A program made the translations under genes and the position numbers. The notes below the pieces were generated by a model. It was not told where the DNA came from. It was given only the letters and a program-made list of their open reading frames with translations, and searched no databases. A stretch of 40,120 bases of DNA, from positions 1-40,120 of the forward strand of contig CAZUFC010000080.1 in NCBI GenBank assembly GCA_964619725.1. The letters run 5' to 3'. Of the stretch, positions 3,913 through 39,980 are shown piece by piece (position 1 is the stretch's first letter; each line of letters starts with the position of its first letter). The stretch is from an uncultured bacterium (GTDB taxonomy: Bacteria; CSSED10-310; CAZUFC01).

Positions 3913-3943
3913 ATGAAGCCGCCTGTAGATTTGAAACAAAATA

Positions 3944-3972
3944 TTGCCTTGAGTCATAATAAGGTTTATACT
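3944..3972 (+). promoter_or_regulatory. Putative sigma70 promoter of the radical SAM gene
   Basis: TTGCCT (3944-3949) - 17 nt - TATACT (3967-3972), 43 nt before ATG 4016. Confidence 0.55.
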
Positions 3973-4015
3973 TTTCCCCGGCATAGATACCTGAGAAGGT
4001 GAGGTTCGTTTTAAA

Positions 4016-17867: not shown

Positions 17868-17998
17868 GGCCGGCGGGAAGCTGTTCTTTTTTTACTTGAA
17901 GTTGCGGCGCTTTTTTGATATTCACAACTAGTTTTCTCGTTTTTCTGTCGACGAAAAATCGTTTGACTGCCGAACAAAATATCATTAAGGAGGAGCAA

Positions 17999-19475: not shown

Positions 19476-21221
19476 TTAATTTTTATGCAACGACCTCAGC
19501 GGATCGGGGGGTTGTTTCTGGATACCGGTTGCTTCAGACTCACGGAAAATATCCGCTTGCTTGAATTGTAAGATAATCCGCGTCCGACGCTTTCTCTCCG
19601 CAAAGATCAACATAGCCGCTAAAAGCGTACATAAAACGGCCAGTCCCGACGGTTTTGCAGAGGGTATAACCGGTAATGTGGGCGTAGGCGACGGAGCGAT
19701 ATCCGACCAGGCGGCCCAGACGTCGCATGTGGCGCCTGAGCGAAAGTCCGGCCATAAAGCGCAGCGCCTGTATGGAAAGGCTGTGTTGTTGAATCCAACG
19801 CCTGATGAGAGTGCGTTGCTGCTGCCATAGGCCGGGTCAGCGGAACCTCCGGAAACGATTTCGGCCTGCAGCCATGTCGGCGGCATAGTGAAAGCGCATT
19901 CGGAATAGCGGACTCTTGCGCTGTCAGACTGATGCTGATCGATGAAAGCGACGCGATATCCGCCGCCGTTTAAGCGGGAATCTTCAAAAACAGCGGGCAT
20001 GGTGTTGTCGTAATCGGCATCTTGATAAATTTCACCCACATGAACCGGAAATCCGTCAGGCGAAGGGTCCCAGAAGTCGCCGGGACCAACCTGTATACTG
20101 TCTGCATATTGATAGGTATAACAGATTTTGGCGACCGATGTGATTTGTTCTATTCCCGTCCAGACCAGCATCAATGTTTTATTATTCTGAAACGGATTGG
20201 ATGCAATGGCGGCGTCAGATTCTGCACAGGTATGCCAGTCATTCGGCGCCATACGGTAAAGGTCGCTGAACCAACTGTTTCCGCGGTTCACAGAAAGAGC
20301 CGTCAGAACATCGGGATTGCCCGGAGCAGAGCTGAATGCCGCTGACCAGACGCAATACAGACGATTATTAATAACATCTTCAATAAAGTCGGCACGCCAT
20401 ATTTCCACCTGGTCCGTTGCAGGATTTATCGCCGAATATCCGTTCCAGGACGTGCAATTGGTATCGGAGTAATCACACCAGAGTCGACCGTCCGAATAAC
20501 CGTAACTCGCACAGAGGACTCTTTTTAATGAAGGATTGGAAGGACGCCGGACAGATTTCAATCGAGGCGCCACATAATTTTCGTTCGTATCATTCTGCAC
20601 GGAAACAGCCGTAAAATCGTCTCCGGAGCCGATAGCTTTCCAGCAGACGATAATGTCATTAGGGGATGAGATATAGGGCCAGGGAGCAGATACAGCGACT
20701 GTCAGACGGTATGTACCCGGAGTAGTTTGAAAAACAGCGATTGAAGGTCTGAACATAAATAAATTGTATAACGCAAAACCGTTGGCGCCGCCATCTGGAT
20801 TCTCCCAGGTAAATCCGCCGTCTCCCGATCGTTTCACGAAAACGCAATAATGTCCCGGCTGAGGCTGGTTATCGTCGAAATAAGCAAGGTAAACATAGCC
20901 GTCCTCAGCGACAACAACGTCAATTAATCCCTGGCTTGACCCCGGAATACTCTGAACGTTCAACTCCGTCCATATCCCGCGATCTGAAGAGCATTCAAAA
21001 AAATCGCCGGCCGTCCGCAAATTAATTAAAGCATTACCAACGCCTTCTGAATCAGACTGCGATGCTTTTCGTTCCAATCCTTCATGCCCCGGAGCCTCCG
21101 GCAATTGAAAATTACTGATCTCGCCGACCTTGACTCCGCTTCCCAAACCTGCCGCGCCGGCAGGAATAGTTAACGCTATGATCCAAATGCTTAACAGTTT
21201 ATTGAACGCCTTTCTTTTCAT
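19476..21221 (-). CDS. Secreted Asp-box/BNR beta-propeller-like protein with C-terminal Pro/Thr linker, TM helix and basic tail
   Basis: Signal peptide MKRKAF...PAGA; Asp-box-like SGDGGFTW, SDTNCTSW, SVNRGNSW; PSPTPTLPVIPSAKPSGLAVLCTLLAAMLIFAERKRR. AAGGAG RBS before ATG 21221. Confidence 0.75.
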   Translation of the reverse strand: MKRKAFNKLLSIWIIALTIPAGAAGLGSGVKVGEISNFQLPEAPGHEGLERKASQSDSEGVGNALINLRTAGDFFECSSDRGIWTELNVQSIPGSSQGLIDVVVAEDGYVYLAYFDDNQPQPGHYCVFVKRSGDGGFTWENPDGGANGFALYNLFMFRPSIAVFQTTPGTYRLTVAVSAPWPYISSPNDIIVCWKAIGSGDDFTAVSVQNDTNENYVAPRLKSVRRPSNPSLKRVLCASYGYSDGRLWCDYSDTNCTSWNGYSAINPATDQVEIWRADFIEDVINNRLYCVWSAAFSSAPGNPDVLTALSVNRGNSWFSDLYRMAPNDWHTCAESDAAIASNPFQNNKTLMLVWTGIEQITSVAKICYTYQYADSIQVGPGDFWDPSPDGFPVHVGEIYQDADYDNTMPAVFEDSRLNGGGYRVAFIDQHQSDSARVRYSECAFTMPPTWLQAEIVSGGSADPAYGSSNALSSGVGFNNTAFPYRRCALWPDFRSGATCDVWAAWSDIAPSPTPTLPVIPSAKPSGLAVLCTLLAAMLIFAERKRRTRIILQFKQADIFRESEATGIQKQPPDPLRSLHKN

Positions 21222-21337
21222 GAATCTCTCCTTTACCAAACGCCAGATATATGATTCAGAATTTCGAATGCCTTTGTCAAATTTCCTTCAATGGATCACA
21301 GTCGAAACGCATAACATATAGTGATCGAAATTCCGGT

Positions 21338-21546: not shown

Positions 21547-22881
21547 TCACTGCTCCAGCCTGGATATCACGATACGTTTTTTACCGGAGTTATCCGATAC
21601 AATATGCTGCCGCTTAATTTCCGTGAGGGTTATTTTCATTTCCGGACCGATCATTTTACGTGTATAGCTTTTCAGTCTTTCCCTTTTTTGACGGTTCCAG
21701 CCTTTTCCCGGCACCGCCAATATGCGCAGATTCATCCGGTTTTCCTGTATGAATTGAACGAACTTTATCCCTTCGATAAACTCCGGGACGATAAAAAGCG
21801 ATGTGATGTAGCGGCCGTCAGGGGTTATGATGACGTCTTCCTTTCTGCCGTGTATCGCTTTGATCAGGGGGAGAGTTCTGCCGCACGAGCATTGAACGGG
21901 CTGATTGAACGTTTCGATCTCATCCCCCAGTTCATAGCGAACAAGAGGCATCGCCATGTTATAGAGAGAAGTGCCTACGGCTTTTCCTATGGAAGTATTT
22001 TGTCCTGATAATTCTGATTTATTTTCGATCTGCAGGAGTCCATAGTCCATGTTGACGTGATACCCGCCCTGGGGACATTGACAAATCGCCGCCGTTCGCT
22101 CCATATGGCCGTATGAGTCCATTACCGGACAGTGAAAAACCGATTCTATCATGCGGCGGTAAGGCGCTGACAGGACCTCGCCGGTCGAAAAGGCCGCTTT
22201 GAAGCCTACATCACTCACTCCTGATTCTTTTGTCAGCATTGCGAAAAAGTATAAAGTCGATGCTAATCCCTTCAAGAATTGCGGTTTATACCGACGAACA
22301 GCCCCAATCATTTTTTTCGCCTGCTCCGCAGACAATTGTCCGCTGTTCAGCATTAATCGCCGCAATGTTCTCTGCCACACGAAAGGTTTCTCACTCAAAT
22401 GAGACCTTCTTAAAAAATATTCGCTTCCGAATTCCGCAAAACGGTCGCCAAGCCTGTAGCCGGCCCATCCCCAGTAACGCCAGTAATAACAGAATTCAAG
22501 GATATTGGATTGCTTATCCAGATAAAAAGTGAGCGGTTCCCCTGTGGTGCCGCTTGTCGTATATCTTTTGGGACTGTAACGGCGTGCGTTTTCAGCGGTC
22601 ATTGAATGAAAATTGTTTTTTATGATTCGCTTGTTCAGCAAGGGAACTATTCTCAAATCCTCCGGCGTCACGATTTTTTCCGGCGTTATGCCTTTTTCGA
22701 GAAAAAGATTTCTGTAATAAGGCACGTTTCGATAAGCCTGATCCAGTATCGTCTTCAACCGCATTATCTGATATTCCACAAGCTCATCATGCGGCGCCCA
22801 TTGGTTTTTATCGAGTATTCGCGTGAGTTTAACAATTCCCAGCGGGTAGAAAAAATCTGAAGGAGAGAAGTCAATAGCCAT
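21547..22881 (-). CDS. CapK/PaaK-like adenylate-forming (ANL superfamily) enzyme
   Basis: AYRNVPYY, TTSGTTG P-loop, SYGHME, MPLVRYELGD, CSCGR, GRKED, SGKKRIVIS. Confidence 0.9.
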   Translation of the reverse strand: MAIDFSPSDFFYPLGIVKLTRILDKNQWAPHDELVEYQIMRLKTILDQAYRNVPYYRNLFLEKGITPEKIVTPEDLRIVPLLNKRIIKNNFHSMTAENARRYSPKRYTTSGTTGEPLTFYLDKQSNILEFCYYWRYWGWAGYRLGDRFAEFGSEYFLRRSHLSEKPFVWQRTLRRLMLNSGQLSAEQAKKMIGAVRRYKPQFLKGLASTLYFFAMLTKESGVSDVGFKAAFSTGEVLSAPYRRMIESVFHCPVMDSYGHMERTAAICQCPQGGYHVNMDYGLLQIENKSELSGQNTSIGKAVGTSLYNMAMPLVRYELGDEIETFNQPVQCSCGRTLPLIKAIHGRKEDVIITPDGRYITSLFIVPEFIEGIKFVQFIQENRMNLRILAVPGKGWNRQKRERLKSYTRKMIGPEMKITLTEIKRQHIVSDNSGKKRIVISRLEQ

Positions 22882-22958
22882 AATTCTTCGATTCGAGAAA
22901 CAAAATGGAAGTGATCAAAAGACGTTTACTTTTGATGATCGCATGCGAGTCCGTCATT

Positions 22959-23207
22959 TCAGGTTTCACTTTTGCCGTATCGACTGATTGTTCTTTTGAG
23001 GTCGCCGAAATTTTTAATCTGAAATATGTCCCGCGGTTTAATTTTAATATTGTACCGTGAATGTATTCTGGCGAGAAGCCGGAGCATATCTCTTGAATCA
23101 AGCGGAATATCGTCTCCGAAGGTTGAATTTTCATCAATACTGCTTCGACTGAGATCAACGAATTCAGCCATAATGTGCAACAATTCATCAGCATCGACAT
23201 GCATCAT
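22959..23207 (-). CDS. Discrete acyl carrier protein
   Basis: 82 aa; STFGDDIPLDSRDML (Ppant Ser), ACP helix pattern ...IKNFGDLK; ATGA overlap with the PKS stop. Confidence 0.8.
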   Translation of the reverse strand: MMHVDADELLHIMAEFVDLSRSSIDENSTFGDDIPLDSRDMLRLLARIHSRYNIKIKPRDIFQIKNFGDLKRTISRYGKSET

Positions 23208-26200
23208 ACCGCCTCGTCCGATTTCTCAAAAGTTTCAGTGATTCTGCTGACGGCATAGGCGTACTGCCATTTCTGCAAAGCGACTGATTTGACAGTCCCC
23301 TGATCAGGATGATCAAATTCAAAAATCATATATTCTCCATCCGGTTTCACAGTGAGCAGTTCAATCTCCTTCAATAAGCGTTTTCCCCGGGCAGGCAGTT
23401 TAACAGCGGATTCTTTTGCTGTCCACAACAGCGTCAAAGCGTACTTTTCGGTGAACTCCGCTGCCTGTCGCACTGTTTTTAATTCTTTCGCGTCGCAAAA
23501 ATCGTCGAAATGAGAATCGAGAGATATCGTCATAAGTTCAACGTCGATGCCTACAGGCGAATAGCTTGTTGCCGCAACTGCAACGTCGGCGCTGTGTGAA
23601 ATGGATATGAACGGAGGCCGGGTTTCCTCAAAACAGGAACCTTGCGCAAAAGGCGCACCGTTCGGACCATTCCCTATGGAGATGTCTGAAGGCATGATTT
23701 TCCGAATATTTAACAACTGTCTTATTGCCGTTTTGGCGGCTATTCTTCCGGCTGTCCATTCGGCGCGTCTCTTAGGATGGCGGATCATATCCAGACGTTT
23801 CAGCTCCTCTTCAGAAAGGTAAAATTTTAAAACCTCCCGTTGCCTTCCTCCGTTAACGGCCTCTCCTACAGAAGCAATCCTGACATGGGCAGCATTTATT
23901 TCATCAAGCCCCAATATGCGTCTCATCCGGTCATCTTTTCGATTTGTTCTCAGCTCATCCCAGATTCTTTCATCAGTTTTCTCTTCCGATTTTTGCATAT
24001 CATTCGTTTTAACCAGTCCGTAAATTCTCAGGGACGTTCTGCCCATTTCATCAGCGGCTTCGATGCGGCACGTTTGTTCCGAAACATCCGATTGCCGTAT
24101 GAAAATGCGGCATGTTTGAGCATCTCTTTTATTATTCGGCTGAATAAATTCGATAACATCGACTTTTTTAACGGAGTAACCGGCTGCGCTGAACATACAG
24201 GCGGCATAAATATCGGAAGCGAAAAAAAGGCTTTCAAGACGAATCAGATCACCCAGAGATTTCGTTGCATATTCAGGACGATTCGCTGTCGGATGGACTT
24301 CTGCGGAAAAGCCGTCCGGCGATATGGAAGCGACCGCATCGATATTATTGTAAATACCTTTATACCGGCTCATAAGTTTTGTATTCCATATGTCTGAAAT
24401 ATCGATGCGTTCCGTTGCAATTGAGTTTTCCGGAAGAATGATCCGGGAGACTTCAGACGTAGAATTTTCGCTAAAAACAAGGCTGCATGAAATATGAGTC
24501 ATTTCCCCGGCATTCATGCTGCCCGGCGTATCTCCAGGAGAGTAAAGTCTGGCCTTAAAGGCATCCGGTTCATTTGCATCTTTGATCCGCCGGACTTCCG
24601 CATATAACTTAAGGGAATTGTTTTCCGTCATAACGATATTGCTCTGAACCTCCAGATTAACGATTCGCTTTATGACAACTTTTGAATCAAGCAATGCTTC
24701 AGCCGTCTGAGCCAGCATCTCCAGGCCGTATGAGACAGGCATATGAAATGCCCCATCGGTAAGATGCGCATTCAAGAATTCATTTTCCTCAGGATTAAGG
24801 TCTATCCTTCCCAGAGCCTCTCCGGGACGTTTTCTTTCGATTTCGACTAATGACTTCTTTTCTTTCTGAGGCAGCGGCGTTTCGCCCGATTCAACGGGTT
24901 GGAAAAGGCCTGCAGGTTCTTTTCCCCTCAATGCCGCCGTAGAATTTTTGCCCGCCAGTATCTCACGGTGGAAAAACATGAAGCCGTCCGATTCGGTAAT
25001 GAAGGCGGCTCCTTTCTGATGAAGGCGCTCCATGGTACTGCCCTGCCTGGTCATTCCTTTCTTCAGCCAGGGTCCATAAAGGAGATTGATCCAGATGCCG
25101 GACCTCTTTCTTTCGTTGCGTGCAGCGGCCACGGCAGAGCATGAAATCTCGTGCCCCGCAGCATAAGAACTCAATCCCATGTATCCCCATCTTCCGACTA
25201 TACTGGACAGATTTACGAAGGCTTTTAATTTTACCTCTTTCAATGCAGCGACAAGGTTTAAGGTTCCCAGGCCTTTGGGTTTGAAACCTTCTTCAAATTC
25301 ATCGCCGGTTGTATTCAAGACGCTTTTTTCAAACAGTCCGCCGGCGCCGTGAACCACGACGTCAATTCGTCCGTATTTCGCCGTAATGCGGCCCAGCGTC
25401 TCTTTTACATCCGGCATATCCGTCAAATCGCAGGCGTAATATTCAACTTCGCTCCCGGCTTCCTTCATCCTGTTTATATTATAGTTGCGTTCGGATTCCC
25501 ATACCTTTCGCCAGGCTTGTTTTTCCAGTTCAAAAGGAGTCGAACCGGAACAGGTTTCTTCGTTTACTTTTAACGCCTGTTTGAAAGCCTCTTCATACTC
25601 CAGCGGAGCGCTCGCAGGATACTGCTCCTTAAACCGACTTCTTCCGATTATGACCATCCTGCACTGGTATTTTTGCGCTAATTCAAGACAGAGGCTCGCC
25701 GTAATGCCTCGAGCTCCTCCCGTAACAAGAATGATACTTTCCGCGTTCAATTCGAATTCGTTTACCGTTTCCGGTTCCTGTTCCGCCGCCCAGTGAATTT
25801 CATATCTTTCACCCTTTATCCGGCCTATTTCCGAATGGCCTTCTCGCCGAACTGTTTCCCGGAAAATGAATTCCGCAGTTTCCTGCGCATCATCCATTTC
25901 ATCAAAATCAATGTACAGAGCTTCAAGAATATCGGGATGCTCCGATGCCAGACTCCTTATCAGACCTAATCCGACAGCGGACAAGGGAGCAAACCGGCAT
26001 CTCTTTTCAGCGCCGAAATCGCCGCCCATGGACGTAACGCTCACCCACAGTTTCTGATTTTCATTTTGGCGTTCAGCGACGGCGATGAAGCGTTTCGCTG
26101 TTTCAAGCAAAATGCCCGCCCTGGTTCGCCATTCCTCCCAGGCTGAATCGCTGCCTTCATCAGACATTGAAAACGCTTCGTCCAGACATGACAGGTCAAT

Positions 26201-29200
26201 GATTATATCCGCTGATTGTTTTGTGATCTCTGGTATCTTACCCGCTTCGCAAATTATAGTCGTTGCGCCGGCATTGCTTATCAGATCGGAGAGGTATTTA
26301 TAAACGCCTTTTCCGTCGCTTATGATGATGACGCTTTTTCCTGAAAGGTTCGACCCATTCCCGGATTCTTCACGAGATGCTTTCTTCAGGAAACTGACGA
26401 AACGATATGTGTTCGTGTTGTATTTATCACTCTTTTTCACAGCGCCCTTTTGTTGGTCCTGCTCTTCCGGACGCGTTTCGACTTCACCGCCGGGTGACTC
26501 GTCCGGCACAAGAGAGACTATTTTTCTTATCAGTTCTTCAAGCGTCGTAATTTCATAACGTCCAGCAGGAGAAGCGGACGACATGTCGACGTTGTACATT
26601 TGCTCCAGTTTTCTGACTATTTCCATCTGCTTTATGGAATCGACCGCCAGCTCAGCTTCAACATCCACATTCAGATCGATCAGCTCCGCCGGATAACCCG
26701 TCTTTTCAGAAATCAGGGCAATCACCTGCGTTTCGACATCCTTTTTTGATGCTTTTTTCGATACAGCCTGTCGTTCAGGCTTGAAATCCTGAAAATGCTC
26801 GAAGTCCAACCGGATCATTTCTTTGATATATTCCCGTCGCGACTGAATATATTCTTCAATTTCCTCATCATTCTTACCGGTCAGAGCTGATGCAAAAAGG
26901 TCTTCCCGGACGACGGCCGGAAGCGATTGTTTTCTGGCGACGGCAGACTCAGACCGTTTTAGTTTTCTGTATTCATCGCCCCTTTGTTCCACCAGGGATT
27001 GCGTTTTCTTCTTCAAAGGCTTTGATTTAACAGGAAGTCCTCTTGCCGCGCAGAAAGCCAGAGTATGAAGCAATTGTATGGTGGGAGAGCGGCGGGCCTG
27101 GTTTGAGGGAAAAGTGAAGTGCGGTCTGTCTCCAAGCGTATCGTCGACAAAGGAACAAAGCGCTGCGCCAGGACCTATTTCAACGAACAGCCTGGCGCCG
27201 GCATGATACATTGATTCAATGTTGTTAATGAATTGTACCGGACTGACCAGGTGCATCGCCAGAATTTCCCGTAATGATTCACTGAAGTTTCCATCCGTTG
27301 GATAGGCTTTTCCGAGAGTATTGCTCTGGACCTTTATTTTCGGAGGTTGCACGTCGATTTGATTGAGGAGCCATCGAAAAGGTTCGACGGCTGTAGAAAG
27401 CAGCGATGTATGAAAAGCGCTGGACACATTCAATGGAATGCAGTCAATATTCATATCATCGCATATGGAATGAACTCTTGATACGGCTTCTTCTTCTCCG
27501 GCGATCACGGTCTGTGAGGGGCAATTGATGTTGGCGATTCTGACGTAACCTGTAACTCTGTCCAATATATAACCGGTTTCTTCGGCCGGCGCCCGCACCA
27601 CCGCCATCGTTCCCTTATGGAAGCAGTTTTCGTATATGCGGGAACCTCTGAGGCTGATCAATTTGACAGCGGTCTCCATGTCGAAGACTCCTGCAGAATA
27701 CAAAGCCAGGTATTCACCCAGGCTGTGACCGGCGGTCATATCCGGTTTTATTCCGAAAGAATTCAACACAGCGTTAACTGCAGAGCATATGGCGAAAAGG
27801 GCGGGATGATTGTAATCCGTCCTGACAAGTAATTCCTGGAGCTTTTCTTTTTCGGCGGGAGTCATATCGATGCCGGTTGCGAGTATGCTTTTGATCGAAT
27901 GACCGGTCCACGTCTGAGCCAGAGAATCGACACGGTCAAATATTTCATTTGCTTCCGGAAAAAATTCAGTGAGGTCGCCGCCCATATTTGGATATTGCGC
28001 ACCCTGGCCGGGAAACAGAAAAGCCGTTTTTTCTCCTTCCTGCAGGGTTTTTTCGCTGAAATAAATGCCTTGTGCAAGTGATATGTCTTGACGGGAATCA
28101 TTTTCAAGCAAGGCTGCGGCTGTTTGCGTCAGTTGACGAAAATGCTGTTCGTCCTCTGCGACTATTGCCGTTACAACATTTAGTTTACTCGGATAACCGG
28201 ACGCGCTTTGTGACATTACAGATAGTACCGGCGTATCTATACCTGTGAATGTAAGTTGCGCCGATTTTAATTCGTCAATCATGTCACGGCGCGTTTTTGC
28301 CTTGAAAATCAGTACATGAGCGGGCCATTTCTTTTTCATTTCGGCAGCAGTCGGGAGGAGGTCAGCAACGAAAGCCGGTTTACGGCTGCCGGGCGCTTCT
28401 TCCAGTACCGCGTGAAAATTTATTCCTCCGAATCCGAATGCATTGACTCCTGCACGCCTGGGTCTGCCGGCAGTGTTCCAGGGGAGCGGTTCCCGGTTGA
28501 TGTAAAACTGGCTGTTTTCCCAGTCGATGTCTTTGCGGGGCTTCTCGCAATTGATGGTCGGCGGGAGTATCCTGTGGTGCAACGCCAGCACGGTTTTAAT
28601 GAATCCTGCTATTCCTGCGGCAGTTTTCAAATGACCGATCATTGATTTTACGGAACCCAGGGCGACTGATCCTTTATTTTTCGTATAAGGAGAAAAAGCC
28701 CGGGTCAGCGAACGCATTTCAGTGACGTCGCCCAGCGGCGTGGCCGTGCCGTGTGCTTCAACGAGTGAGATGTCGGCGGGAGTGACAGGTATATTTTTGT
28801 AGGCGCTTTCTATGGCGCGCGCCTGACCCTTGAAATCAGGAGCTGTGACGCCCCGCATCCTGCCGTCGTTGGAACCGCCGATATCGCGTATCAGCGCATA
28901 TATCTTGTCGCCGTCTTTCACAGCATCCTTCCATCGCCTTAAAATCACCACTCCTGCGCCTTCCCCCACTACAAATCCGTCGGCTCGCTGATCGAAAGGG
29001 AAAGAACCGGTATCGGACAAGGCATCGATATTCGACAATAAGATGAAGGTTGTGGGAGTGACGGCGGCATCGGCTGCGCCGGCAAGAACCATGTCGTAAC
29101 GGCCGTTTCTCAGGCCGTCCAGTGCGGTTTGTAAGGCCGCCATGGCTGAAGCGCATGCCCCGTCTATAGTATACGATGCGCCTCGCAAATCAAAACATCG

Positions 29201-31900: not shown

Positions 31901-32038
31901 CTCTCCTCTTGTTCAATCGAAGCAATATAACGGTCGACTCCGTTTGCATGTTCAAGGGAATTCCTGTTTCATACTTCATGCGTCGAAATGCTCCGCATAC
32001 TTCCCTGATATACAAATAACTGATATTCCCAAATAAAA

Positions 32039-33121
32039 TCAATAATAAAGCCAGTCGCCCAGAGAAAAACGCCAGTTTTCCGGCTTCAGCTCAGGCGCCT
32101 CTTCCCCGCTGCGCTCCGTGGCGACGATCAGTTTCATTCTCCATAAAGCGCCGGCCCAGGATCGAAAGCCGATGCGTTTCAATGCCTTCTCCTGCAAGGA
32201 ACCTTGCGGAAAAGAAGCGCCGGCCATGCCTATTCCCTGCTTATGCAATCTGTGGAGAGCAGTTCCAAGTAAAATATGGGAAACATCTTCCTGCCGGTCC
32301 TTCATCAGAAGCTCCAGGATGTAACCTTCACGCCGTTCTTTCCAGACCGAACAGACGATGACTCCCACCAGCCGTCCGTCAAGATAAGCCCCCAGACATT
32401 CATGCCGACGGTCGGGACGAGCAATATACCGCCAGTTCATATATTTTGAATTTTTCTCTATGCTGATCACGCGGTCCGCTTTCAGACTCATCCAGAATTC
32501 GTCATATCCGCTGTTGAATTCATGCAAAGGTTCCACAGTGATCCTGCCGGAATTTGAAAAACTTCTCTTTTTCACGCCTGCGACTTTCTGCAGAAAGAAG
32601 CTCCCCGGCAGCGCCAGGGAAGCCGGCAGTGAGCGATTACGAAGAGCCTGAAACGCATCGAGCATAACGAAGAATATTTTGGGTTTGCCTATAAGCGACC
32701 ACCCCAGGCGGACATTCATATCAACCGATTTTGAATCGGCCAATGAAAACCCGAAAGAAACGCCCTTCTCCACGCATAATACATAATTCATCTGAAGCAG
32801 TCCGGAATAACAGGACCAGCGTCTGAACGAAGGCAAAACCGCCAGGCCTTCAAACAGGCATGCCAAAAGAGGATATCCCATAACGGACATACGATAAAAT
32901 ATTCCGCCGATTTTACCGATGACCGTATCGTTATGGATCGCCGCAACCGATGCCGAATCGCGTTCAGGATTCTCCAGGTAACACCATCGCCAGAATTCCC
33001 GGCTCCGCTCCTGGCCCCTGACTTCCCTGTAGAGCCGACTGAGACCATCTGCCAGAGAATCCAGGTTGTCTTTATTCAATTTTTCGAATCTGATTGCATT
33101 GGTTTGACCGCTCTTCATCAT
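32039..33121 (-). CDS. GNAT-family N-acyltransferase (tandem GNAT-like domains)
   Basis: RSREFWRWCYLENP, LAVLPSFRR, YMNWRYIARP and WRFSLGD end, typical of GNATs in glycan loci. Likely start ATG 33121 (ORF-track start 33178 lies inside repeat R1-D). Confidence 0.8.
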   Translation of the reverse strand: MMKSGQTNAIRFEKLNKDNLDSLADGLSRLYREVRGQERSREFWRWCYLENPERDSASVAAIHNDTVIGKIGGIFYRMSVMGYPLLACLFEGLAVLPSFRRWSCYSGLLQMNYVLCVEKGVSFGFSLADSKSVDMNVRLGWSLIGKPKIFFVMLDAFQALRNRSLPASLALPGSFFLQKVAGVKKRSFSNSGRITVEPLHEFNSGYDEFWMSLKADRVISIEKNSKYMNWRYIARPDRRHECLGAYLDGRLVGVIVCSVWKERREGYILELLMKDRQEDVSHILLGTALHRLHKQGIGMAGASFPQGSLQEKALKRIGFRSWAGALWRMKLIVATERSGEEAPELKPENWRFSLGDWLYY

Positions 33122-33127
33122 GGCGTC

Positions 33128-33156
33128 ATTATATACCGCAAAATGACAATGATCAA
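33128..33156 (-). promoter_or_regulatory. Putative sigma70 promoter giving a leaderless GNAT transcript
   Basis: Minus strand reads TTGATC (33156-33151) - 17 nt - TATAAT (33133-33128) - 6 nt - ATG (33121). No SD sequence. Confidence 0.6.
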
Positions 33157-33224
33157 AAAGGCCTCTTTTAAGGCACAATTCTTAAAAATTTCGCACCGTT
33201 TTGTTTCGATTGCGATTGCGATAC
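33148..33224 (-). repeat. Dispersed repeat family R1, partial copy D
   Basis: AATGATCAAAAAGGCCTCTTTTAAGGCAC resembles copy C AATGATCAAAGTACCTCTTCTGAAGTTAC, followed by TTTTGTTTCGATTGCGATTGCGATAC hexamers. Distal end not recognisable. Confidence 0.6.
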
Positions 33225-33335
33225 AGGCTAAAACGAAATCCTGGGACTGAAATTATGGGGCGTCGTGGAACCATAAAGTGAACGATATCAGGGGCTATTA
33301 CACCTTGATTGAATTCGGGTATGGATATTGATAAA

Positions 33336-33410
33336 AAAGGACGAAGGGACGAAGGGACGAAGAGACAAAGGGACAAAGGGACCTAAGGGACCTAAAGGAC
33401 AGAAGGGACG
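33336..33410. repeat. Short tandem repeat, about 9 units of AAGGGAC(G/A/CT)
   Basis: aaaggacg aagggacg aagggacg aagagaca aagggaca aagggacct aagggacct aaaggacag aagggacg. Confidence 0.85.
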
Positions 33411-33475
33411 TTTGGAGTATAAAATCATTTTTATAAACCAAAACCATCATCCATCTCCGAATTCCGGCAATTGTC

Positions 33476-35134
33476 TCAGAGGTAACCCAGGTCCTTCAGC
33501 CTTTCCTGCACCATCTGTTCTTCCTGTTCAGTATAGGACGTTTTTCCGGAATCAGCTTCTTTTTGGATTTTCTCCTGTTCTCCGTATCTTATGGGTTGTT
33601 TTTCCAGGCGTTTCATGGTGAATATTTCGGCGGGTATTCTTCCTTCCATGTGCAGTGGGATGGGTATGTTCATGGAATAGAGGATCGTCGGCGCCATATC
33701 GAGGACTCCGGACTCCGCGTTTTTTCCGCTTTGAATGCCCGGACCGGCGGCTATGAATATGCCTTCCATGCGATGAGTTCCTGTTTTCCAGTTTTTTTCT
33801 ATTAATGGACCTTTGAACGCCGGTGAGGGTTCGATTGTTCCTTCGCCGAACGTTACATATATATCCGGGGCATCCTTGATATAATCGCCCTGCATTATGT
33901 TTTCTTTACGCTCAATCCTTGTTGCCAGACATTCTCCTGTTTCGGGATGCTTTAAACCTTTAATCGCCCTGATAACTTCTTCAATTATTTCACGTCGGGC
34001 GACCTCATTCGCCTCTTCTCCATCTTCATCCCCCGGCGCGTTGACGTATATGCCGCAATCGGAATGCGATTTCAGGCAGGCCCTGGTTCGATTCCAATCA
34101 ATGCTTTCTGCCATGACCGTCATGTCATTGGCGCCCCAGCCGGTAGGTCTGGCGTTTCCAGACAAGAGTTTCTGCTTTAACTGACGGATGTATTTTCTCA
34201 CTCCCATAGCCCCGGCTATTCTGACGGCTATGGAATCGATTTTAGCCAGGGGATAACGTCTGTCGATCCTTTTGGTGTCGTAATGAAGAAAGCCCTGATC
34301 AGCCAGAAACTTGTTTACTCTTAACTTATAGTGAACTGGACCGAAACCGTGGTCGGATATGATGAAAAAATCGGTTTCGGCGCCGAAAGAATCCAGGAGC
34401 ATTCCGATCGTTTCATCTATTTCCCGGAAAAATTTTTCCATAAGGCGTTTCATGCCGGGATTCGAGGGGTTCTGTTCAAGGTCGCAATGGGGCCATAATC
34501 TGTGCTGAACCCGGTCCAATTCCATGATGACGCCGAAAAACAGGTCGGGAAGCCCTTTTTTCAACAGGAATCGCATGATGTTCCTGGTTCGTTGATGATA
34601 TCGTACGGCTCTTTCGATCACCCTGCGGTCCGAACCGTCTCTGACCAGGACATCCGCAGGCAGCAGCTTGTTTTCCTTTAATTCCTGGAACAGTTCCGGC
34701 GGATAAGTCATTTGCGGGCCTGGAGCAGGAGTAAGCATACCCGTAAGCATTATGCCGTTCAGTTTTGCCGCGGGATAAGCCAGGGGAAAATTCGTGATGC
34801 ATACGCTCCGATTGTATTGACCGGCAATGTCCCAAATCCGGGGTGTTTTGACGTCATAGGAACGTACGAAACGAGCCTTCATTCCGTCAGAAGACCATTT
34901 GAAAAAATCGAACACGCCATGCATGGCCGGATTGACTCCCGTTGATATGGACGTCCAGGCTGGTCCCGTAACCGGGGGCATGGTAGACGTCAGAATACCG
35001 CGGCTGCCCCTGTTTATTAAACTCTCCAGATGCGGCATAGCGCCTGATTCTATCCATTGATCGAGAATATCAAACGTCGCGCCGTCCAGTCCTATAACGC
35101 ATGTGCGCTGAGATGCCTTTTTCGGTTGCTCCAT
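33476..35134 (-). CDS. Alkaline phosphatase superfamily protein (type I phosphodiesterase/nucleotide pyrophosphatase-like)
   Basis: IGLDGAT, STMPPVTGPAWTS..TG.NP..HG, DRVQH, ISDHGF, GTHRMEG, DMAPTIL, C-terminal RLKDLGYL. GGAGG RBS. Confidence 0.9.
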   Translation of the reverse strand: MEQPKKASQRTCVIGLDGATFDILDQWIESGAMPHLESLINRGSRGILTSTMPPVTGPAWTSISTGVNPAMHGVFDFFKWSSDGMKARFVRSYDVKTPRIWDIAGQYNRSVCITNFPLAYPAAKLNGIMLTGMLTPAPGPQMTYPPELFQELKENKLLPADVLVRDGSDRRVIERAVRYHQRTRNIMRFLLKKGLPDLFFGVIMELDRVQHRLWPHCDLEQNPSNPGMKRLMEKFFREIDETIGMLLDSFGAETDFFIISDHGFGPVHYKLRVNKFLADQGFLHYDTKRIDRRYPLAKIDSIAVRIAGAMGVRKYIRQLKQKLLSGNARPTGWGANDMTVMAESIDWNRTRACLKSHSDCGIYVNAPGDEDGEEANEVARREIIEEVIRAIKGLKHPETGECLATRIERKENIMQGDYIKDAPDIYVTFGEGTIEPSPAFKGPLIEKNWKTGTHRMEGIFIAAGPGIQSGKNAESGVLDMAPTILYSMNIPIPLHMEGRIPAEIFTMKRLEKQPIRYGEQEKIQKEADSGKTSYTEQEEQMVQERLKDLGYL

Positions 35135-35333
35135 TGCTCTCTTTCAACCTCCTTCATCGAGCATACTCTTTTTTTATTGAAATTGCTAATACCTTTATGG
35201 ATCAAAAACTCGAAGCGTCTGGGCGCCCAGCCATGCCGACTGAAATCTAACTCCGTTGAGAGGCGCTGATACTTTCCTCTTCGGGATTCTAATTTGATTC
35301 TAATGAAGACTCCGGGAATACTCCCATCAGCTT

Positions 35334-36794
35334 TTAACCTGTGAGGGATTTCCAGGCAGAATATAAATCTTTTCTCATAAAAATCAACGTAAAGAAGCCA
35401 TAAACCAGGGCGCCGGAAGCCGCCTGCAGCGAAAGCGTGCTCAACGCAGACATCTCACCTGCGATATCCGGCACAAGATAAACCGAAAGTCCCATGACCG
35501 CGCCGCTCATTATTGGAACAAACGCGGCCTGAAAATATTCTTTAAAACACGGCCCCATCAATTTTTTCAGGAACAGGATATAATGAAGGCCTATTAAAGG
35601 GACATGAAAAGCCAGGAGGAGATAAACGATGTTGATGACTCGACCGGTAAGACAACCGGCGAGAACGAGCGGGGCAACGATCGACAGAATTCCGGCTCGC
35701 CAGAGAAACAACCGGGCCGACCAACCTGCGGCCAGGATAATTCCTGCGGAAAAGTTCATTATTGAACTTATAAGAGCATAAAAAGCGAATGCCTGAACAA
35801 GGGGAACGGTCTCCCTCCAGGCGTCTCCCAGAAAATAAGGTAATGCTGCCGGCGCTGTTCCCGCTATGCCGAACAATATGGGAGCGCTGAGCATGGTTGA
35901 AAATCGGATCATCTGCAAAAAGCCCCTCTTTGCCCTCGGCCTGTCCTGTTCCACTCTGACGAATACGGGGAACGCCACATGATTGAAGATGGGATTTAAT
36001 CGCTGAACCGGCTGCCAGGCTATCCTGACGGCCATATTGTAGTATCCCAGAACCGTGGAACCCAATATGCCGCCGACGAACAACTGGTCCAGCCGATTGG
36101 ATAAAGCGTTCGTCAGGCGTGCCCCGACACGGTACGCTCCGAATCCCAGGTATTCCCTGATTTCGTGAAATCGAAGCCGCAATTTCGGTTTATAGAACCT
36201 TTGCATGCCCCAGGAGGCATAAAGAGCGGCTTGAGCTGCAGCCTGCGCCAGACGGCCCCATACCAGGGCCCAGAAGTTCATGTTCAGTTTCCAGGCGCAA
36301 AATATCGCAACAGCAGCGTTAATCAACGCCGCTATCACGTCGAACCACGCGATGACCTTGAATTCGAGTTTCTTATGAAATAAAGCCATATAGGGCATGC
36401 CGACAGGAGATACTATAAATATCAATCCCAGAACTTGTAAAACCTGACTCAGTTCAGACAATTGAAAACGAGCGGCAATAAACGGAGCAACCAACCATAG
36501 AAGTGCGTAAAACAGGAAGCCTGCCGATAAACTGAACCAGAATAAACTGCACAGTTCATTATCGGATGGATTTTTCCTTTGTATAATAGCCTCATTCAGT
36601 CCCAGCCGACTCAACAGCAGCATAAAATCAACGAAAACAAGCGCTACGGCGAATATGCCGAAATGAGAAGGCGACAGCAACCGTGCCAGCCCTGCGAGAA
36701 CCGCCAAATGAATGAGCACGACCAGAAAAGCTGAAACGGCGGTATACTGTCCGCCCCTGGCCGCTATTTTTCTTAATTTCATATCTCTTGACAT
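35334..36794 (-). CDS. Wzx-type polysaccharide flippase (MOP/PST family, WzxC-like)
   Basis: LARLLSPSHFG, LGLNEAIIQ, LDQLFVGGILG...GYYNMA, VAFPVF; many TM helices. Confidence 0.9.
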   Translation of the reverse strand: MSRDMKLRKIAARGGQYTAVSAFLVVLIHLAVLAGLARLLSPSHFGIFAVALVFVDFMLLLSRLGLNEAIIQRKNPSDNELCSLFWFSLSAGFLFYALLWLVAPFIAARFQLSELSQVLQVLGLIFIVSPVGMPYMALFHKKLEFKVIAWFDVIAALINAAVAIFCAWKLNMNFWALVWGRLAQAAAQAALYASWGMQRFYKPKLRLRFHEIREYLGFGAYRVGARLTNALSNRLDQLFVGGILGSTVLGYYNMAVRIAWQPVQRLNPIFNHVAFPVFVRVEQDRPRAKRGFLQMIRFSTMLSAPILFGIAGTAPAALPYFLGDAWRETVPLVQAFAFYALISSIMNFSAGIILAAGWSARLFLWRAGILSIVAPLVLAGCLTGRVINIVYLLLAFHVPLIGLHYILFLKKLMGPCFKEYFQAAFVPIMSGAVMGLSVYLVPDIAGEMSALSTLSLQAASGALVYGFFTLIFMRKDLYSAWKSLTG

Positions 36795-36874
36795 GGACAA
36801 TTTAACATATTGAAATAATTTGATTTTATTGCATTGCCAATCGACATAATAATTGTGCGGTTTTAGCCCACCCT

Positions 36875-36899
36875 AAATCCCCCGCAAGGAGGGGGATTT
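36875..36899. terminator. GC-rich hairpin (REP-like or terminator)
   Basis: AAATCCCCC-gcaagga-GGGGGATTT perfect 9-bp stem between the GT-C and flippase genes. The T-rich tail is on the + strand, antisense to the cluster. Confidence 0.5.
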
Positions 36900-36995
36900 T
36901 GTTTTACTTGAAATTTTTTGATCGCCTGTTGTATTTTCGACAAAAAGTTCACAATTTTTTATCAGTCGTGATATCATGAGATGCGAATATAGTCA

Positions 36996-39980
36996 TTATT
37001 CATCATAAAACCAAACTGAGATTCTCTGTCGGGTATAAACGCCGGGCAATAATCCTTTTTTCATGCCGAGAGCGTATATGGTGTGTGAGAATCCCTCATT
37101 GAAGTTCATTCGATCGTTCCTGCCTGTGTCCAGTGTATTTTTCCATTTTTCATTCCTCAAGGCATAGGGGTCGTCGTAAACAGCGAAAAAGGGACCTTGC
37201 GCATCGTTCCTGACTGGGACTGCGGCGATTCCGACGGGCTGCCCTTTGCAGATGCGCGCTGCAGGCACGGTAAGGCGAAAAAGTCCCGCACGGGCTACGC
37301 CTGCAGCTTTCGGTTTTCTTATCATTTTTTTCTGTGCAAACCTCAGTTCGTAGTCGTCGCTCTTCCATTGCTGTTTTCTTGCCGGCGAAGGCTCAACCGT
37401 AAGCGCGTATTCATTGTTGACGTAGAGATTTATTTTTCCCGTTTTGTCATCCATTGCGCCGTTGAAGAAAAAAGTCGTTTCCCCGGCGCTCTTCGCGGGG
37501 GCGGAGAGCCATACTATACGTGACGGGCTTTCTTTTTCGAATTCATCTGCTTTCTCTCGTTTCGCGGGCGTCAGATATTTTGGAAACTCGTACGGAATCA
37601 GGCGTCCGGAAGGATAGAAACCCAGATAAAAATCACGGCCTGGATACATGTCCATGAGCATTGTGTCCAGGTAGAAACCGAGATAATGAGCATAAACGAT
37701 GGGGCCGTCGAAGTCGGGAGTATTCTGTGGCCATACGGAGCCGTAATCCATCCAGTGAGCGTCCAGGATTTTTTCATCCGGCCTGGTATGACCGGCATAA
37801 GTTATTCTTCTGACTATCCTGTGATCAATCTGCGCTCCGAATTCCCGCCAATTATCCTCCAGGACTTTAGGGACGACGAATACGACCGCATCGTCGATTT
37901 TCTTTTTTTTCGCGGTTTTCAGTATTTCTCCGCTTACTATATTCTGATCGCGCATATCTTTAATGATCGATCCGTACCCGGCAGGATTCCTCACAGAAAA
38001 AATCAGGATTAACGATAAAAGCGTCCATCGAAGCGGCGTCGCTGCGTGTGAAATGCTTTTACCGGCAGCGGATTTAACGCGTTCGGTAAGCCGGCCGGCT
38101 GCATTCATGGGCAGAATAAGCCCCCGCGCCGTCAGAAGCAGTATAAAAGGCAGCGCTTCAAAATAATAACGGGGTCCGTAACACAATCCATCGCTGTAAA
38201 ATAGAAAATAGGCGCCGATGATGAAAATAAAACCGGATGCCATAAACCTGTCGGATGCCGAACCTGCCGGTTTAAGCGCAGGTATGAACAGGGGAGCCAA
38301 AACCAGGAAAACAGGCCATCGAAATAAAAACGCCATCATGCTGCTGAACTGATTGTCTATATTGTGGAAACTCTTGGCGATACGATAGAGAATTTTAAAT
38401 TTTTTCTGAGCGCCGAAAGAGAGGGTGTTTGCGACCATTGTCCTGCCGGCGTATGCTTCGTATGTCGTCAGAAGAGGATCGCCGGTCAGGAGAGCGTTAT
38501 ATCCCAAAAAAACGAATCCGCTCAGAATTAAGCCTGTAAGCATACCCAGCATATGATCGCGGTTTTTTAAACGGGACTGCACGGCATCCCATATTGTGAA
38601 GACAAACATCAACAGGCCGCCGGCAAATGAAGTCAAAGGCCGCGTGGCCGCCAGCATACCCAGAAAAACGCCCGCTCCGAATCCCCGGAGAAACTTATGT
38701 CTTTTGTCGCCGCTGAAAAGACAATACAGGAATGCCAATGTATAAAACAGTCCGGCGCCGTGCGACATAAAAGTCCCATGCATTAAAAGGAAAAAGGGAG
38801 AAACCAGCCCCAGCAGGACGGCTATATTGGCTGTTTCCCTATTGTAAAGAATCAGGCCCAACCGGGACAGCAGAAGAAGACTCAGGCCTCCCAGAACAGG
38901 GTTCACCAACCACCCCAATCCCAGTTTTATGCCCGGCGCGAGCAACATGGGATAGCCGTAGGGGTAATGAGTGAACATTTTATCCTTTTTTGCGGTCAAA
39001 AATGTATGGATGAAGAACTGAGGGCATTCCGGAACAGGCGCCCATAGCCTTCCCGCTGCGAAAATTTTTGCTTGAAAAATGTAAGCTCCTGAATCCTGTA
39101 CGTGAGACCGTCCCTCCAGTATGAATAAATTGATGTAACTGCTTATGATGACTGCAGCAATCGCAGCCCCGAAAGGTATAATTACGGCTGCCTTTGTTTT
39201 ATTAACCGCCTTTTTCAATCTCAGGCAAAATGAAATTATTTTTTTCAGGCGAATGCACAGGAGCAACAACGCGCAGAAAATAAATGAAATAACAACGGCA
39301 AGCAGGACGGCGCACCCATAAATCAACAGAATTTTAGTAAGAAAGACGGCCATTCTGGAGAAAGGAGCAGGAATTGTTTTTGCTTTTTGCATTCCGACGG
39401 TATTTCCTTTTTCCACAATAGATAAATTAATATTGCGATGCAGGAAAGGACGAAATTCAAGATGCACATAATTCTCATCATCTGTCGCCAGAAGACGCAT
39501 TCCTGCAGACCAGCCTCCCAGAATATCCGCTTCAATGCGATAATTGGTCCCGAAGTTTCTGACCGTTTCGATGACGGCAAGGTCATCGGCAGTAACGGCG
39601 CCCCAGCGAATCTGCGGACTGCCCTGGACCGTTTTCCAATCCTGCAGAATACCGTTGCTGAAATTATCTTCAAAAAGAAGCTCGTCCGTTTTGCCGTCAA
39701 AGACCCTGATATAGTCCCATTCCTGGAATACGCCCGTTTTTTCAGCCCACCAGTTGCTTTCGCCCAGCGTAATTAATTCCAGGCCGATATGTCCTTCCCG
39801 CCACGGGGGAGCTTCGATTTTGACGGCTTCGGTTCCATCGAAGACAACGCTTATTTCATGAGGGTTTACTTCAATCGCAAGATGATAACGGCCGGCTGAA
39901 CGGAAAAAGAAAAAGAGAGCGACCAGAAAAACATGGACAACAAGAAGGATGGAGTATTTAATCTTAATGCGTTTCGTCAC
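36996..39980 (-). CDS. GT-C fold membrane glycosyltransferase (ArnT/PMT-like) with extra extracytoplasmic beta-rich domains
   Basis: HVQDSGAYIFQAKIFA, YPYGYP..LA, SPFFL...TFMSH, TRP, YN..LTGDPL, YGPRYYFE; N-terminal lectin/ConA-like region (LFEDNFS...W). GTG start. Confidence 0.8.
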   Translation of the reverse strand: MTKRIKIKYSILLVVHVFLVALFFFFRSAGRYHLAIEVNPHEISVVFDGTEAVKIEAPPWREGHIGLELITLGESNWWAEKTGVFQEWDYIRVFDGKTDELLFEDNFSNGILQDWKTVQGSPQIRWGAVTADDLAVIETVRNFGTNYRIEADILGGWSAGMRLLATDDENYVHLEFRPFLHRNINLSIVEKGNTVGMQKAKTIPAPFSRMAVFLTKILLIYGCAVLLAVVISFIFCALLLLCIRLKKIISFCLRLKKAVNKTKAAVIIPFGAAIAAVIISSYINLFILEGRSHVQDSGAYIFQAKIFAAGRLWAPVPECPQFFIHTFLTAKKDKMFTHYPYGYPMLLAPGIKLGLGWLVNPVLGGLSLLLLSRLGLILYNRETANIAVLLGLVSPFFLLMHGTFMSHGAGLFYTLAFLYCLFSGDKRHKFLRGFGAGVFLGMLAATRPLTSFAGGLLMFVFTIWDAVQSRLKNRDHMLGMLTGLILSGFVFLGYNALLTGDPLLTTYEAYAGRTMVANTLSFGAQKKFKILYRIAKSFHNIDNQFSSMMAFLFRWPVFLVLAPLFIPALKPAGSASDRFMASGFIFIIGAYFLFYSDGLCYGPRYYFEALPFILLLTARGLILPMNAAGRLTERVKSAAGKSISHAATPLRWTLLSLILIFSVRNPAGYGSIIKDMRDQNIVSGEILKTAKKKKIDDAVVFVVPKVLEDNWREFGAQIDHRIVRRITYAGHTRPDEKILDAHWMDYGSVWPQNTPDFDGPIVYAHYLGFYLDTMLMDMYPGRDFYLGFYPSGRLIPYEFPKYLTPAKREKADEFEKESPSRIVWLSAPAKSAGETTFFFNGAMDDKTGKINLYVNNEYALTVEPSPARKQQWKSDDYELRFAQKKMIRKPKAAGVARAGLFRLTVPAARICKGQPVGIAAVPVRNDAQGPFFAVYDDPYALRNEKWKNTLDTGRNDRMNFNEGFSHTIYALGMKKGLLPGVYTRQRISVWFYDE

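Follow-up and report, generated by a model that had tools for sequence, protein, structure and literature searches.

The window analysed here, a stretch of 40,120 nucleotides from an uncultured bacterium of the small phylum CSSED10-310, carries a three-gene core in which the gene of a tandem GNAT acyltransferase is followed by that of a fused type I fatty acid synthase (FAS) and by that of a small acyl carrier protein (ACP), and this core is conserved in related loci of other bacteria. We propose that a long saturated acyl chain is made by the FAS and taken over by the GNAT for the N-acylation of an amino sugar, with a lipid-tailed glycan or a glycolipid as the product; to our minds this proposal has an even chance of being right.

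The window spans contig C80 from end to end, and this contig belongs to a metagenome-assembled genome (MAG) of 9.17 Mb in 344 contigs, with a completeness of 90.9% and a contamination of 6.5%. The listing of its open reading frames (ORFs) places seven consecutive genes on the minus strand within 21547–39980, in agreement with the seven co-oriented genes reported in a sequence-only reading of the same DNA, which saw in them a polyketide synthase (PKS) embedded in a locus for the export and modification of surface glycans. Family scans covered 21 ORFs of the window.

The megasynthase is a fused, ArsA-like fatty acid synthase

The largest protein of the locus (2898 residues, 23204–31900, minus strand) is, by its Pfam and NCBIfam domains, an iterative type I FAS in which counterparts of ArsA and ArsD are fused. 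It starts with an NMO-like pseudo-enoyl reductase (residues 1–340, matching NMO with an E-value of 4.5e-7) and a second enoyl reductase (ER) of the FabK/NMO type (342–679), followed by a ketosynthase (KS, 710–1119), an acyltransferase (AT, 1294–1590), an ACP (1725–1792), a ketoreductase (KR, 2057–2290), a dehydratase (DH, approximately 2360–2450) and a phosphopantetheinyl transferase (PPTase, 2708–2859). The DH segment gives a weak PKS_DH_N match (E 0.0094) together with an HxxxGxxxxP motif, and a PDB sequence search with it found nothing. The translation shows what we take to be the signature residues of the KS (Cys/His/His), AT (GHSLG), ACP (DSI), DH (the motif just given) and PPTase (GIDVE and WxxKES).

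The order and the functions of these domains are those of the ArsA/ArsD type (NMO-like/ER, KS, AT, ACP, KR, DH, PPTase). With the first 700 residues as the query, homologues were found in Azotobacter (P0033, E 5e-67) and Methylocaldum (P0051, named 'type I fatty acid synthase ArsA', E 4e-65), the identity to ArsA-type proteins over these residues being 30–31% at E-values of about 1e-67 to 1e-65; the closest homologues of the synthase carry PF21089. What had been taken for a mega-PKS is thus an ArsA-like type I FAS, because it possesses the full reducing domain set plus a PPTase, and its predicted product is therefore a plain long acyl chain rather than a decorated polyketide.

No thioesterase family was found among the scanned ORFs of the window, as the sequence-only reading had stated, and in the whole genome PF00975 left a single trace, sub-threshold and on contig C46. 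A type III PKS, the partner (ArsB/ArsC) that makes phenolic lipids in the ars system, is likewise missing: there is none among the scanned ORFs of the window and no PF02797 match in its own genome (90.9% complete), with controls matching in 3 of 14 genomes. Given the absence of both a thioesterase and a type III PKS, the enzyme is predicted to work like ArsA, yet the locus is not an ars system. In passages of three papers on that system, ArsA is described as making C22–C26 acyl chains (C23–C25 in one passage), which remain on its ACP and are handed directly to the type III PKSs ArsB and ArsC, with ArsD as the PPTase (PMC4824345, PMC6274091, PMC3098273).

A second ArsA-like synthase is encoded in the same genome, on contig C46 (8263–19764, locus L184). 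It is split into a protein of 2272 residues and one of 1456 residues, the latter with KS-AT-…-PPTase, and is followed by an ORF of 101 residues. Its surroundings include a fragment of PMT_2 and an ORF with a sub-threshold likeness to thioesterases.

GNAT, synthase and ACP form a conserved core

The synthase N-terminus as a single-protein query retrieved no relative in a first scan of the genome collection. Related loci were sought by alignments, that of the synthase N-terminus for metagenome contigs and that of the GNAT for genome contigs. In six of the seven closest metagenome loci the GNAT gene lies directly upstream of the synthase gene, and the seventh has only 169 nt upstream. Among the ten genome loci that are closest, nine have the synthase gene right after the GNAT gene, and the tenth contig stops inside the GNAT gene. 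These genome loci come from Dadabacteria, Planctomycetota/Planctomycetia, two Brocadiaceae, Omnitrophota, two Bryobacterales and one betaproteobacterium.

A maximum-likelihood tree of the ER and KS domains was built from 75 rows, with too-short rows (L011, L012, L050, L091 and L096 among them) omitted. The window falls into a clade of 13 rows (SH-aLRT 99), all 13 of which are GNAT-adjacent, and lies outside the ArsA clade, a different one of 14 rows that holds the ArsA proteins of Azotobacter and Methylocaldum. An ACP gene lies directly 3′ of the synthase gene in all nine loci with DNA past the synthase, the ACPs being 36–48% identical. Tandem GNAT, fused FAS and small ACP are therefore a conserved unit, and the co-occurrence of the three that had been remarked on in the window alone is borne out.

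The genes around this core vary from one subclade to another. The window groups with L094, L010 and L092 (support 80), all of which have an NPP-type phosphodiesterase. In a second subclade a sulfotransferase gene comes after the ACP gene (L013, L018, L097 and L098), and in a third (L093 and L095) the core is accompanied by radical SAM/SPASM and B12-radical SAM genes with a GT4 or GT2 glycosyltransferase (GT) gene; L096 has a radical SAM gene as in L093 and L095, located upstream. The taxonomic order to which the window belongs comprises this genome alone. The 14 genomes of the phylum hold no orthologue, only ArsA-like paralogues on C46 and in genome G013.

The two loci of the third subclade, both from Planctomycetia MAGs (L093, 1–21050; L095, 1–17280), have the module amid three to five radical SAM genes (SPASM, B12), a methyltransferase gene and a GT gene, which suggests that their acyl chains are heavily modified.

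In the window, the discrete ACP is a protein of 82 residues (22959–23207, minus strand; PP-binding, E 1.2e-9). Its start overlaps the synthase stop in an ATGA, and by this arrangement its translation is probably coupled to that of the synthase. A free ACP had thus been foreseen correctly, but its gene is this ORF, in another frame than the ORF of 109 residues (22871–23200), which was rejected as the ACP since it has no Pfam or NCBIfam family match and is probably spurious. The GNAT and synthase genes are separated by 138 nt.

The ligase and a possible loading function

The ACP gene is followed after 77 nt by a gene for a PaaK/CapK-like adenylate-forming ligase (444 residues, 21547–22881, minus strand), which matches PaaK in the PDB (4r1l) with an E-value of 1.8e-20 and scores below the cut-offs of all NCBIfam equivalogs. 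Relatives of this ligase stand directly after the ACP gene in L095 and nearby in L094, so that, with the window, 3 of the 13 clade loci possess one. The CapK-like enzyme named in the sequence-only reading is therefore well founded as to its homology and recurs, but is missing near most of the core modules.

Could ligase and GNAT serve to load the synthase rather than to unload it? In such a scheme, the ligase would adenylate an unusual starter onto the discrete ACP, the GNAT would prime the synthase in the way of a PKS loading domain, and another enzyme would off-load the chain. The direct succession of ACP and ligase genes in the window and L095 is in line with this, as is the likeness of the ligase to PaaK and FlxY-type enzymes, which activate starters, and GNAT loading domains occur in modular PKSs. 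The distribution of the genes argues otherwise: the ligase is confined to the three loci just named whereas GNAT and ACP are constant. Moreover, the GNAT is a tandem protein similar to N-myristoyltransferases (NMTs) and Eis, not a single loading-type domain, its relatives sit in glycan loci that have no synthase, and the synthase has an AT and an ACP of its own. We thus regard a loading function as improbable.

The tandem GNAT resembles N-myristoyltransferases in fold

The proposed off-loading enzyme is a tandem (double) GNAT acyltransferase of 360–379 residues (32039–33178, minus strand) with matches to Acetyltransf_9 and Acetyltransf_1. Its structure was modelled from an alignment of 7 sequences with a pLDDT of 77. 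The best folds for this model are NMTs (Foldseek E 6e-15, TM-score about 0.6); in the VIA comparison they gave Z-scores of 22.9 and 22.1 with a root-mean-square deviation of 3.4 for 299 and 297 aligned residues, respectively. They are followed by Eis2 (Z 21.1), tandem-GNAT glucosamine N-acetyltransferases (19.2 and 18.8) and MshD (16.4), while the folds of FemX and FemA, at Z about 13, are well below NMT and Eis. The sequence identity to the fold matches is 8–13% (8–11% for the NMTs), and the NMT family gave neither a phmmer match in the PDB (E up to 10) nor an NMT Pfam family (E up to 1). Judging from the model, the likeness to NMT would be a resemblance in fold and not a membership of the family.

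Two other families were considered and rejected. For the HfsK/FemX-like family (PF13480), the GNAT scores 13.2 bits with Acetyltransf_6 (E 0.099) against a cut-off of 22; for NodA, the Pfam scan of six GNAT orthologues (E up to 1) gave only GNAT and chance families. Database names of the relatives are uninformative ('GNAT family N-acetyltransferase' or 'hypothetical'), and a word-based search yielded only 2 relatives.

All seven aligned GNATs end in a conserved C-terminus, …GDW(L/I)x(H/Y), where the confidence of the model is low. NMT catalysis uses the C-terminal carboxylate. This parallel, together with the NMTs as best structural matches, might be taken to mean that the GNAT acylates a protein, at its N-terminus or at a lysine. 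A conceivable substrate would be the product of the next gene, a secreted BNR/sialidase-like protein (587 residues, 19476–21239, minus strand) of uncertain membership in the system, whose sorting-like C-terminus comprises a hydrophobic anchor, then RKRR and about 40 more residues; it shows no Pfam or NCBIfam match, and an Atlas lead (0.91) points to BNR_2 sorting-domain proteins. Protein lipidation is nevertheless very improbable, as the GNAT has no sequence homology to NMT, the BNR-like protein has no homologue in any of the related loci, and the genomic context of the GNAT family points to sugars.

The wider GNAT family resides in glycan loci

At E<1e-30 a profile search with the GNAT retrieved 276 representatives, a number that rises to 6031 at E<1e-10. 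Five of six more distant loci that were annotated (L101, L110, L121, L124 and L141) are polysaccharide loci, of Wzx/Wzy, Bac_transf or GT character and with the phosphodiesterase known from the window. L101 combines Bac_transf/NTP_transferase, the GNAT, a phosphodiesterase, GT4, GT2 and Poly_export; L121 and L124 contain Wzz/BY-kinase, a MurJ-type flippase, radical SAM/SPASM, a phosphodiesterase, the GNAT and Wzy_C; and L141 holds a phosphodiesterase, PIG-L, the GNAT and several GTs. The sixth locus, L142 (5130–12020, a Glassbacteria MAG), has a FabF-like KS, an ACP, the GNAT, FabG, a B12-radical SAM protein and two phosphodiesterases, and appears to be a type II counterpart of the GNAT-FAS-ACP module.

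For a broader sample, we took 35 further genome loci, selected solely because none had been examined previously and each was flanked by 3.5 kb or more in either direction, and picked up to four of the nearest ORFs from each (139 ORFs, of which 132 were scanned and 7 dropped for the size limit). Glycan-assembly families are present among the neighbours in 27 of the 35 loci, those without being L099, L108, L109, L114, L115, L138, L146 and L150. In 9 of the 35 a sugar de-N-acetylase is encoded within two genes of the GNAT, either of the Polysacc_deac_1 (L103, L106, L123, L131, L158 and L160) or of the PIG-L family (L140, L148 and L154).

Synthase and glycan genes also meet in single loci. L110, from a Desulfobacterales MAG, has the order ArsA-like synthase, PPTase, GNAT, BY-kinase-like, Wzz-like, MurJ-type flippase, Wzy_C and GT4, with a synthase from another clade of the ER+KS tree; L050 has Poly_export, BY-kinase, phosphodiesterase, GNAT, Polysacc_deac_1, GT2, Wzy_C, an unknown gene and an ArsA-like synthase. 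As far as gene neighbourhoods can tell, the wider GNAT family suggests that the link of the module to glycans is restored. The sequence-only reading had the GNAT transfer the chain to an amino sugar; such an acceptor suits this family context, but the GNATs that are linked to a FAS have diverged, with just 20–28% identity to those of the glycan loci, and so may have a different acceptor.

An NPP-type phosphodiesterase is a recurrent partner

Next to the GNAT gene in the window lies that of an AlkP-superfamily enzyme, a phosphodiesterase/pyrophosphatase of the NPP type (552 residues, 33476–35134, minus strand; PF01663, E 1.5e-39, 137 bits against a cut-off of 23). By hydropathy it has neither a transmembrane nor a signal segment, unlike the classical ecto-NPPs, and it is accordingly predicted to be cytoplasmic. 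The model (pLDDT 84) finds its best folds in NPP7, the alkaline sphingomyelinase (Z 26.8), NPP4 (25.7), the Xanthomonas (Xac) NPP (25.1) and NPP6 (24.7); a PDB sequence search yielded only matches to the N-terminal part of PhnA. Across all 13 sequences compared, the residues D17, D207, H211, D261, H262 and H454 are invariant and the nucleophile T/S56 is retained, so that profile, bimetal ligands, Thr/Ser nucleophile and fold are all those of PF01663 NPPs.

The phosphodiesterase gene adjoins the GNAT or the synthase gene in all four members of the window's subclade (the window, L010, L092 and L094), which makes the AlkP-superfamily enzyme a conserved partner there. This phosphodiesterase also occurs in 14 of 80 genome loci of the GNAT family.

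The flippase and the GT-C candidate

Upstream of the phosphodiesterase gene, the window has a gene for a Wzx-type flippase of the MOP superfamily (488 residues, 35334–36800, minus strand), single-copy in the genome. The identity given to it in the sequence-only reading holds, with matches in Pfam (Polysacc_synt_3, E 4e-71) and NCBIfam (PRK10459, 315.8 bits against a cut-off of 273).

The outermost of the seven genes encodes a GT-C-like membrane glycosyltransferase candidate (994 residues, 36996–39980, minus strand). Hydropathy outlines an N-terminal anchor, an external domain of about 170 residues, a multi-transmembrane core and a soluble C-terminal domain, with about nine or more hydrophobic stretches in total. 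The GT-C transferase that had been called here thus has its gene, its membrane core and homologues, many of which carry PF13231 or bear names such as GT39 or ArnT-like, but its own PMT_2 (PF13231) score of 21 bits (E 4e-4) is below the cut-off of 26.1. A PDB sequence search with the protein found nothing, and no homologue of it occurs across 160 related loci. Of its five paralogues in the genome, the two closest stand beside GT1/GT2 and sulfotransferase genes. Its membership in the system is uncertain. Since the window is a whole contig, which ends 140 nt upstream of this gene, the locus may extend further in that direction.

Weighing the link to glycans

A number of observations weigh against an acyl chain that ends up on an exported glycan. 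First, tblastn with the Wzx and GT-C proteins of the window gave no match in L010–L098, and no Wzx or other flippase, Wzy or phosphoglycosyltransferase family appeared in the Pfam scan of 61 neighbouring ORFs (21 + 40) of close relatives. None of the 12 other clade members has a Wzx or GT-C relative nearby, and a GT of any kind is found only in L013, L093 and L095. The closest synthase homologues are hence not syntenic with wzx or the GT-C gene, and by the criterion that the sequence-only reading had itself set for its refutation, the glycan link is weakened. Second, an initiating phosphoglycosyltransferase, Wzy and a cytoplasmic GT are all missing from the 21 scanned ORFs of the window, and no de-N-acetylase gene adjoins the module. 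The only Polysacc_deac_1 gene of the window (3076–3912) is 28 kb away from the module and has a single weak match (L102) among the related loci. Third, with at least nine paralogues of the phosphodiesterase in the genome and the five of the GT-C protein, the adjacency of these genes could be due to chance. Fourth, the spacers are long, namely 195 nt between the GT-C gene and wzx, 199 nt between wzx and the phosphodiesterase gene and 297–354 nt between the latter and the GNAT gene, and a palindromic GC hairpin, a possible terminator, lies 3′ of the GT-C gene (36875–36899, between it and wzx), so that separate transcription is possible. Finally, the low identity of the FAS-linked GNATs to those in glycan loci has been mentioned, and Eis-type acetyltransferases come within about 2 Z units of NMT as fold matches.

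Taken together, the lack of a flippase, Wzy or phosphoglycosyltransferase gene in the 12 closest loci, the change of accessory genes from sulfotransferase to radical SAM between subclades, the spacers and hairpin that set the glycan genes apart, and the multiple copies of the GT-C and phosphodiesterase genes would fit a product without any sugar. GNAT, FAS and ACP would then make a stand-alone secondary lipid, such as a long-chain N-acyl amine, an N-acyl amino acid or another sugar-free amphiphile, which lineage-specific phosphodiesterases, sulfotransferases and radical SAM enzymes would tailor; Wzx and the GT-C protein would be unrelated neighbours from one of the many envelope loci of the genome. 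We think this reading unlikely on the whole. The wider GNAT family is overwhelmingly found in glycan loci and beside de-N-acetylases, L110 and L050 have their FAS-GNAT pairs within Wzx/Wzy loci, the surroundings of the module include a GT2 or GT4 gene in L013, L093 and L095, and the phosphodiesterase is a partner common to FAS loci and glycan loci.

Proposed pathway and its significance

In the pathway that we favour, N-acylation of an amino sugar, the FAS would activate itself via its fused PPTase and build a long saturated chain, by analogy with ArsA of about C22–C26. Because the synthase has no thioesterase, the chain would remain a thioester, bound either to the ACP of the synthase or to the discrete one that is translated along with it. 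Release would be the task of the tandem GNAT with its NMT-like fold, which would transfer the chain to an amine, the likeliest acceptor being the free amino group of a nucleotide- or lipid-linked amino sugar. The cytoplasmic NPP-type enzyme may then process a phospho or pyrophospho head group, for instance by cleaving the nucleotide off an N-acyl amino-sugar nucleotide in an LpxH-like step. The neighbouring Wzx would flip the lipo-sugar, and the GT-C enzyme would possibly use it outside the membrane. The PaaK-like ligase may load a starter or re-activate the acid onto the discrete ACP.

A more far-reaching reading is that the locus represents an undescribed and widespread class of pathways, mostly in uncultured bacteria (Brocadiaceae, Planctomycetia, Bryobacterales, Dadabacteria, Omnitrophota and the present small phylum), in which a self-priming ArsA-like FAS would deliver its chain via a dedicated ACP to an NMT-like GNAT that N-acylates an amino-sugar phosphate or nucleotide. 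Trimming by the NPP would leave a non-isoprenoid lipid-linked sugar as the membrane anchor, or even the carrier or donor, for glycans flipped by Wzx and transferred by GT-C; unrelated enzymes would in effect have reinvented the logic of lipid A and Nod factors. In this full form the idea is doubtful, and we put it forward as speculation.

If the pathway that we favour is correct, ArsA-type 'secondary lipid' synthases would not be confined to phenolic cyst lipids, and a whole clade of them would rely for chain release on a tandem GNAT instead of a thioesterase or type III PKS, which would be a new release chemistry for iterative synthases. It would also be a route by which uncultured bacteria, including relatives of the anammox bacteria, could make lipid-tailed sugars or lipid-anchored polysaccharides, and the large family of tandem GNATs without a name that are encoded, with phosphodiesterases as partners, in polysaccharide loci would gain a function. 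With its three genes, the module is small enough for heterologous expression.

Other features of the window

Part of the spacer that separates the phosphodiesterase gene from the GNAT gene (33339–33410) is taken up by a tandem repeat with a unit of 8 nt (8.6 copies, CTTCGTCC-like on the minus strand). Closer to the latter, a sigma-70-like TTGATC-17-TATAAT (33156–33128) lies just 5′ of a GNAT ATG at 33121. The numbers of sigma-70 matches (29 against 23.9) and terminator matches (33 against 21.4) are near those expected from shuffled sequence, and therefore individual sites are leads only. The scan for sigma-54 promoters gave 6 matches against 15.5 expected and thus no signal.

The deacetylase gene mentioned above, of the NodB type, adjoins a radical SAM/SPASM gene, the pair (3076–5458) being 16–28 kb from the module; genes of both kinds accompany the GNAT family elsewhere. 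The radical SAM/SPASM protein (4016–5458) was rejected as an orthologue of the GNAT-linked ones, to which it is only 26–32% identical over about 100–150 residues, against 32–56% among those.

Two large signalling proteins are encoded side by side at 5629–9920, namely a STAND/AAA NTPase (779 residues) and a fusion of AAA_35 with a Ser/Thr kinase (651 residues). Two GAF-sigma-54 activators are encoded at 13069–17651, in a window whose sigma-54 promoter signal does not exceed chance. An ATP-grasp-like protein (17915–19381) gives weak matches to circularly permuted ATP-grasp families and has at least eight paralogues in the genome with 30–55% identity. A perfect 25-nt tandem repeat (2.1 copies, 28–80) is located at the start of the contig.

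Comparison with known systems

The closest known system is the ars operon of Azotobacter vinelandii, whose ArsA/ArsD synthase is Shulse and Allen's 'Type P secondary lipid synthase'. Its synthase is homologous to that of the window, has the same domain order and likewise no thioesterase. In the window, in contrast, ArsA and ArsD are fused in one protein, a tandem GNAT and a discrete ACP take the place of the type III PKSs ArsB and ArsC as partners, and the synthase belongs to a separate, well-supported clade. In our literature searches we came upon no paper that describes an ArsA-like synthase with a tandem GNAT and an ACP as its partners. Papers on the ladderanes of anammox bacteria reportedly concern type II FAS clusters.

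The Raetz steps of lipid A synthesis comprise de-N-acetylation by LpxC, acyl-ACP-dependent N-acylation of a UDP-amino sugar by LpxD and pyrophosphate cleavage by LpxH, which results in a lipid-sugar-1-phosphate. They may serve as a functional template for the cooperation of the GNAT with the NPP-type pyrophosphatase, although there is no homology between the two sets of enzymes, LpxD being a left-handed β-helix and LpxH a calcineurin-like protein.

A shared logic is also apparent with the Nod-factor pathway (NodC, NodB, NodA, NodE/NodF, NodH), which, in the part of the source drawn on here, combines a dedicated fatty-acid machine having its own ACP with a de-N-acetylase, an ACP-dependent N-acyltransferase and optional sulfation (PMC5080398). 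Relatives of the window locus contain genes of such kinds (Polysacc_deac_1, GT2 and sulfotransferase). However, the enzymes are unrelated, as the tandem GNAT is not NodA and the type I FAS is not NodE/NodF; in addition, the module of the window has no adjoining deacetylase or GT2, and its export is of the Wzx type.

HfsK of the Caulobacter holdfast is described, in the passage cited, as a soluble tandem GNAT that is genetically coupled to exopolysaccharide loci and proposed to acylate the amines exposed by a polysaccharide deacetylase (PMC5362036). This HfsK/HfsH logic matches the wider GNAT family, but HfsK is FemX-like, belongs to a different GNAT family and is not accompanied by a dedicated synthase. 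The eukaryotic NMT, finally, is a pseudo-dimeric tandem GNAT like that of the window and moves a long acyl chain to an amine, its donor being an acyl-CoA and its acceptor the N-terminal glycine of a protein.

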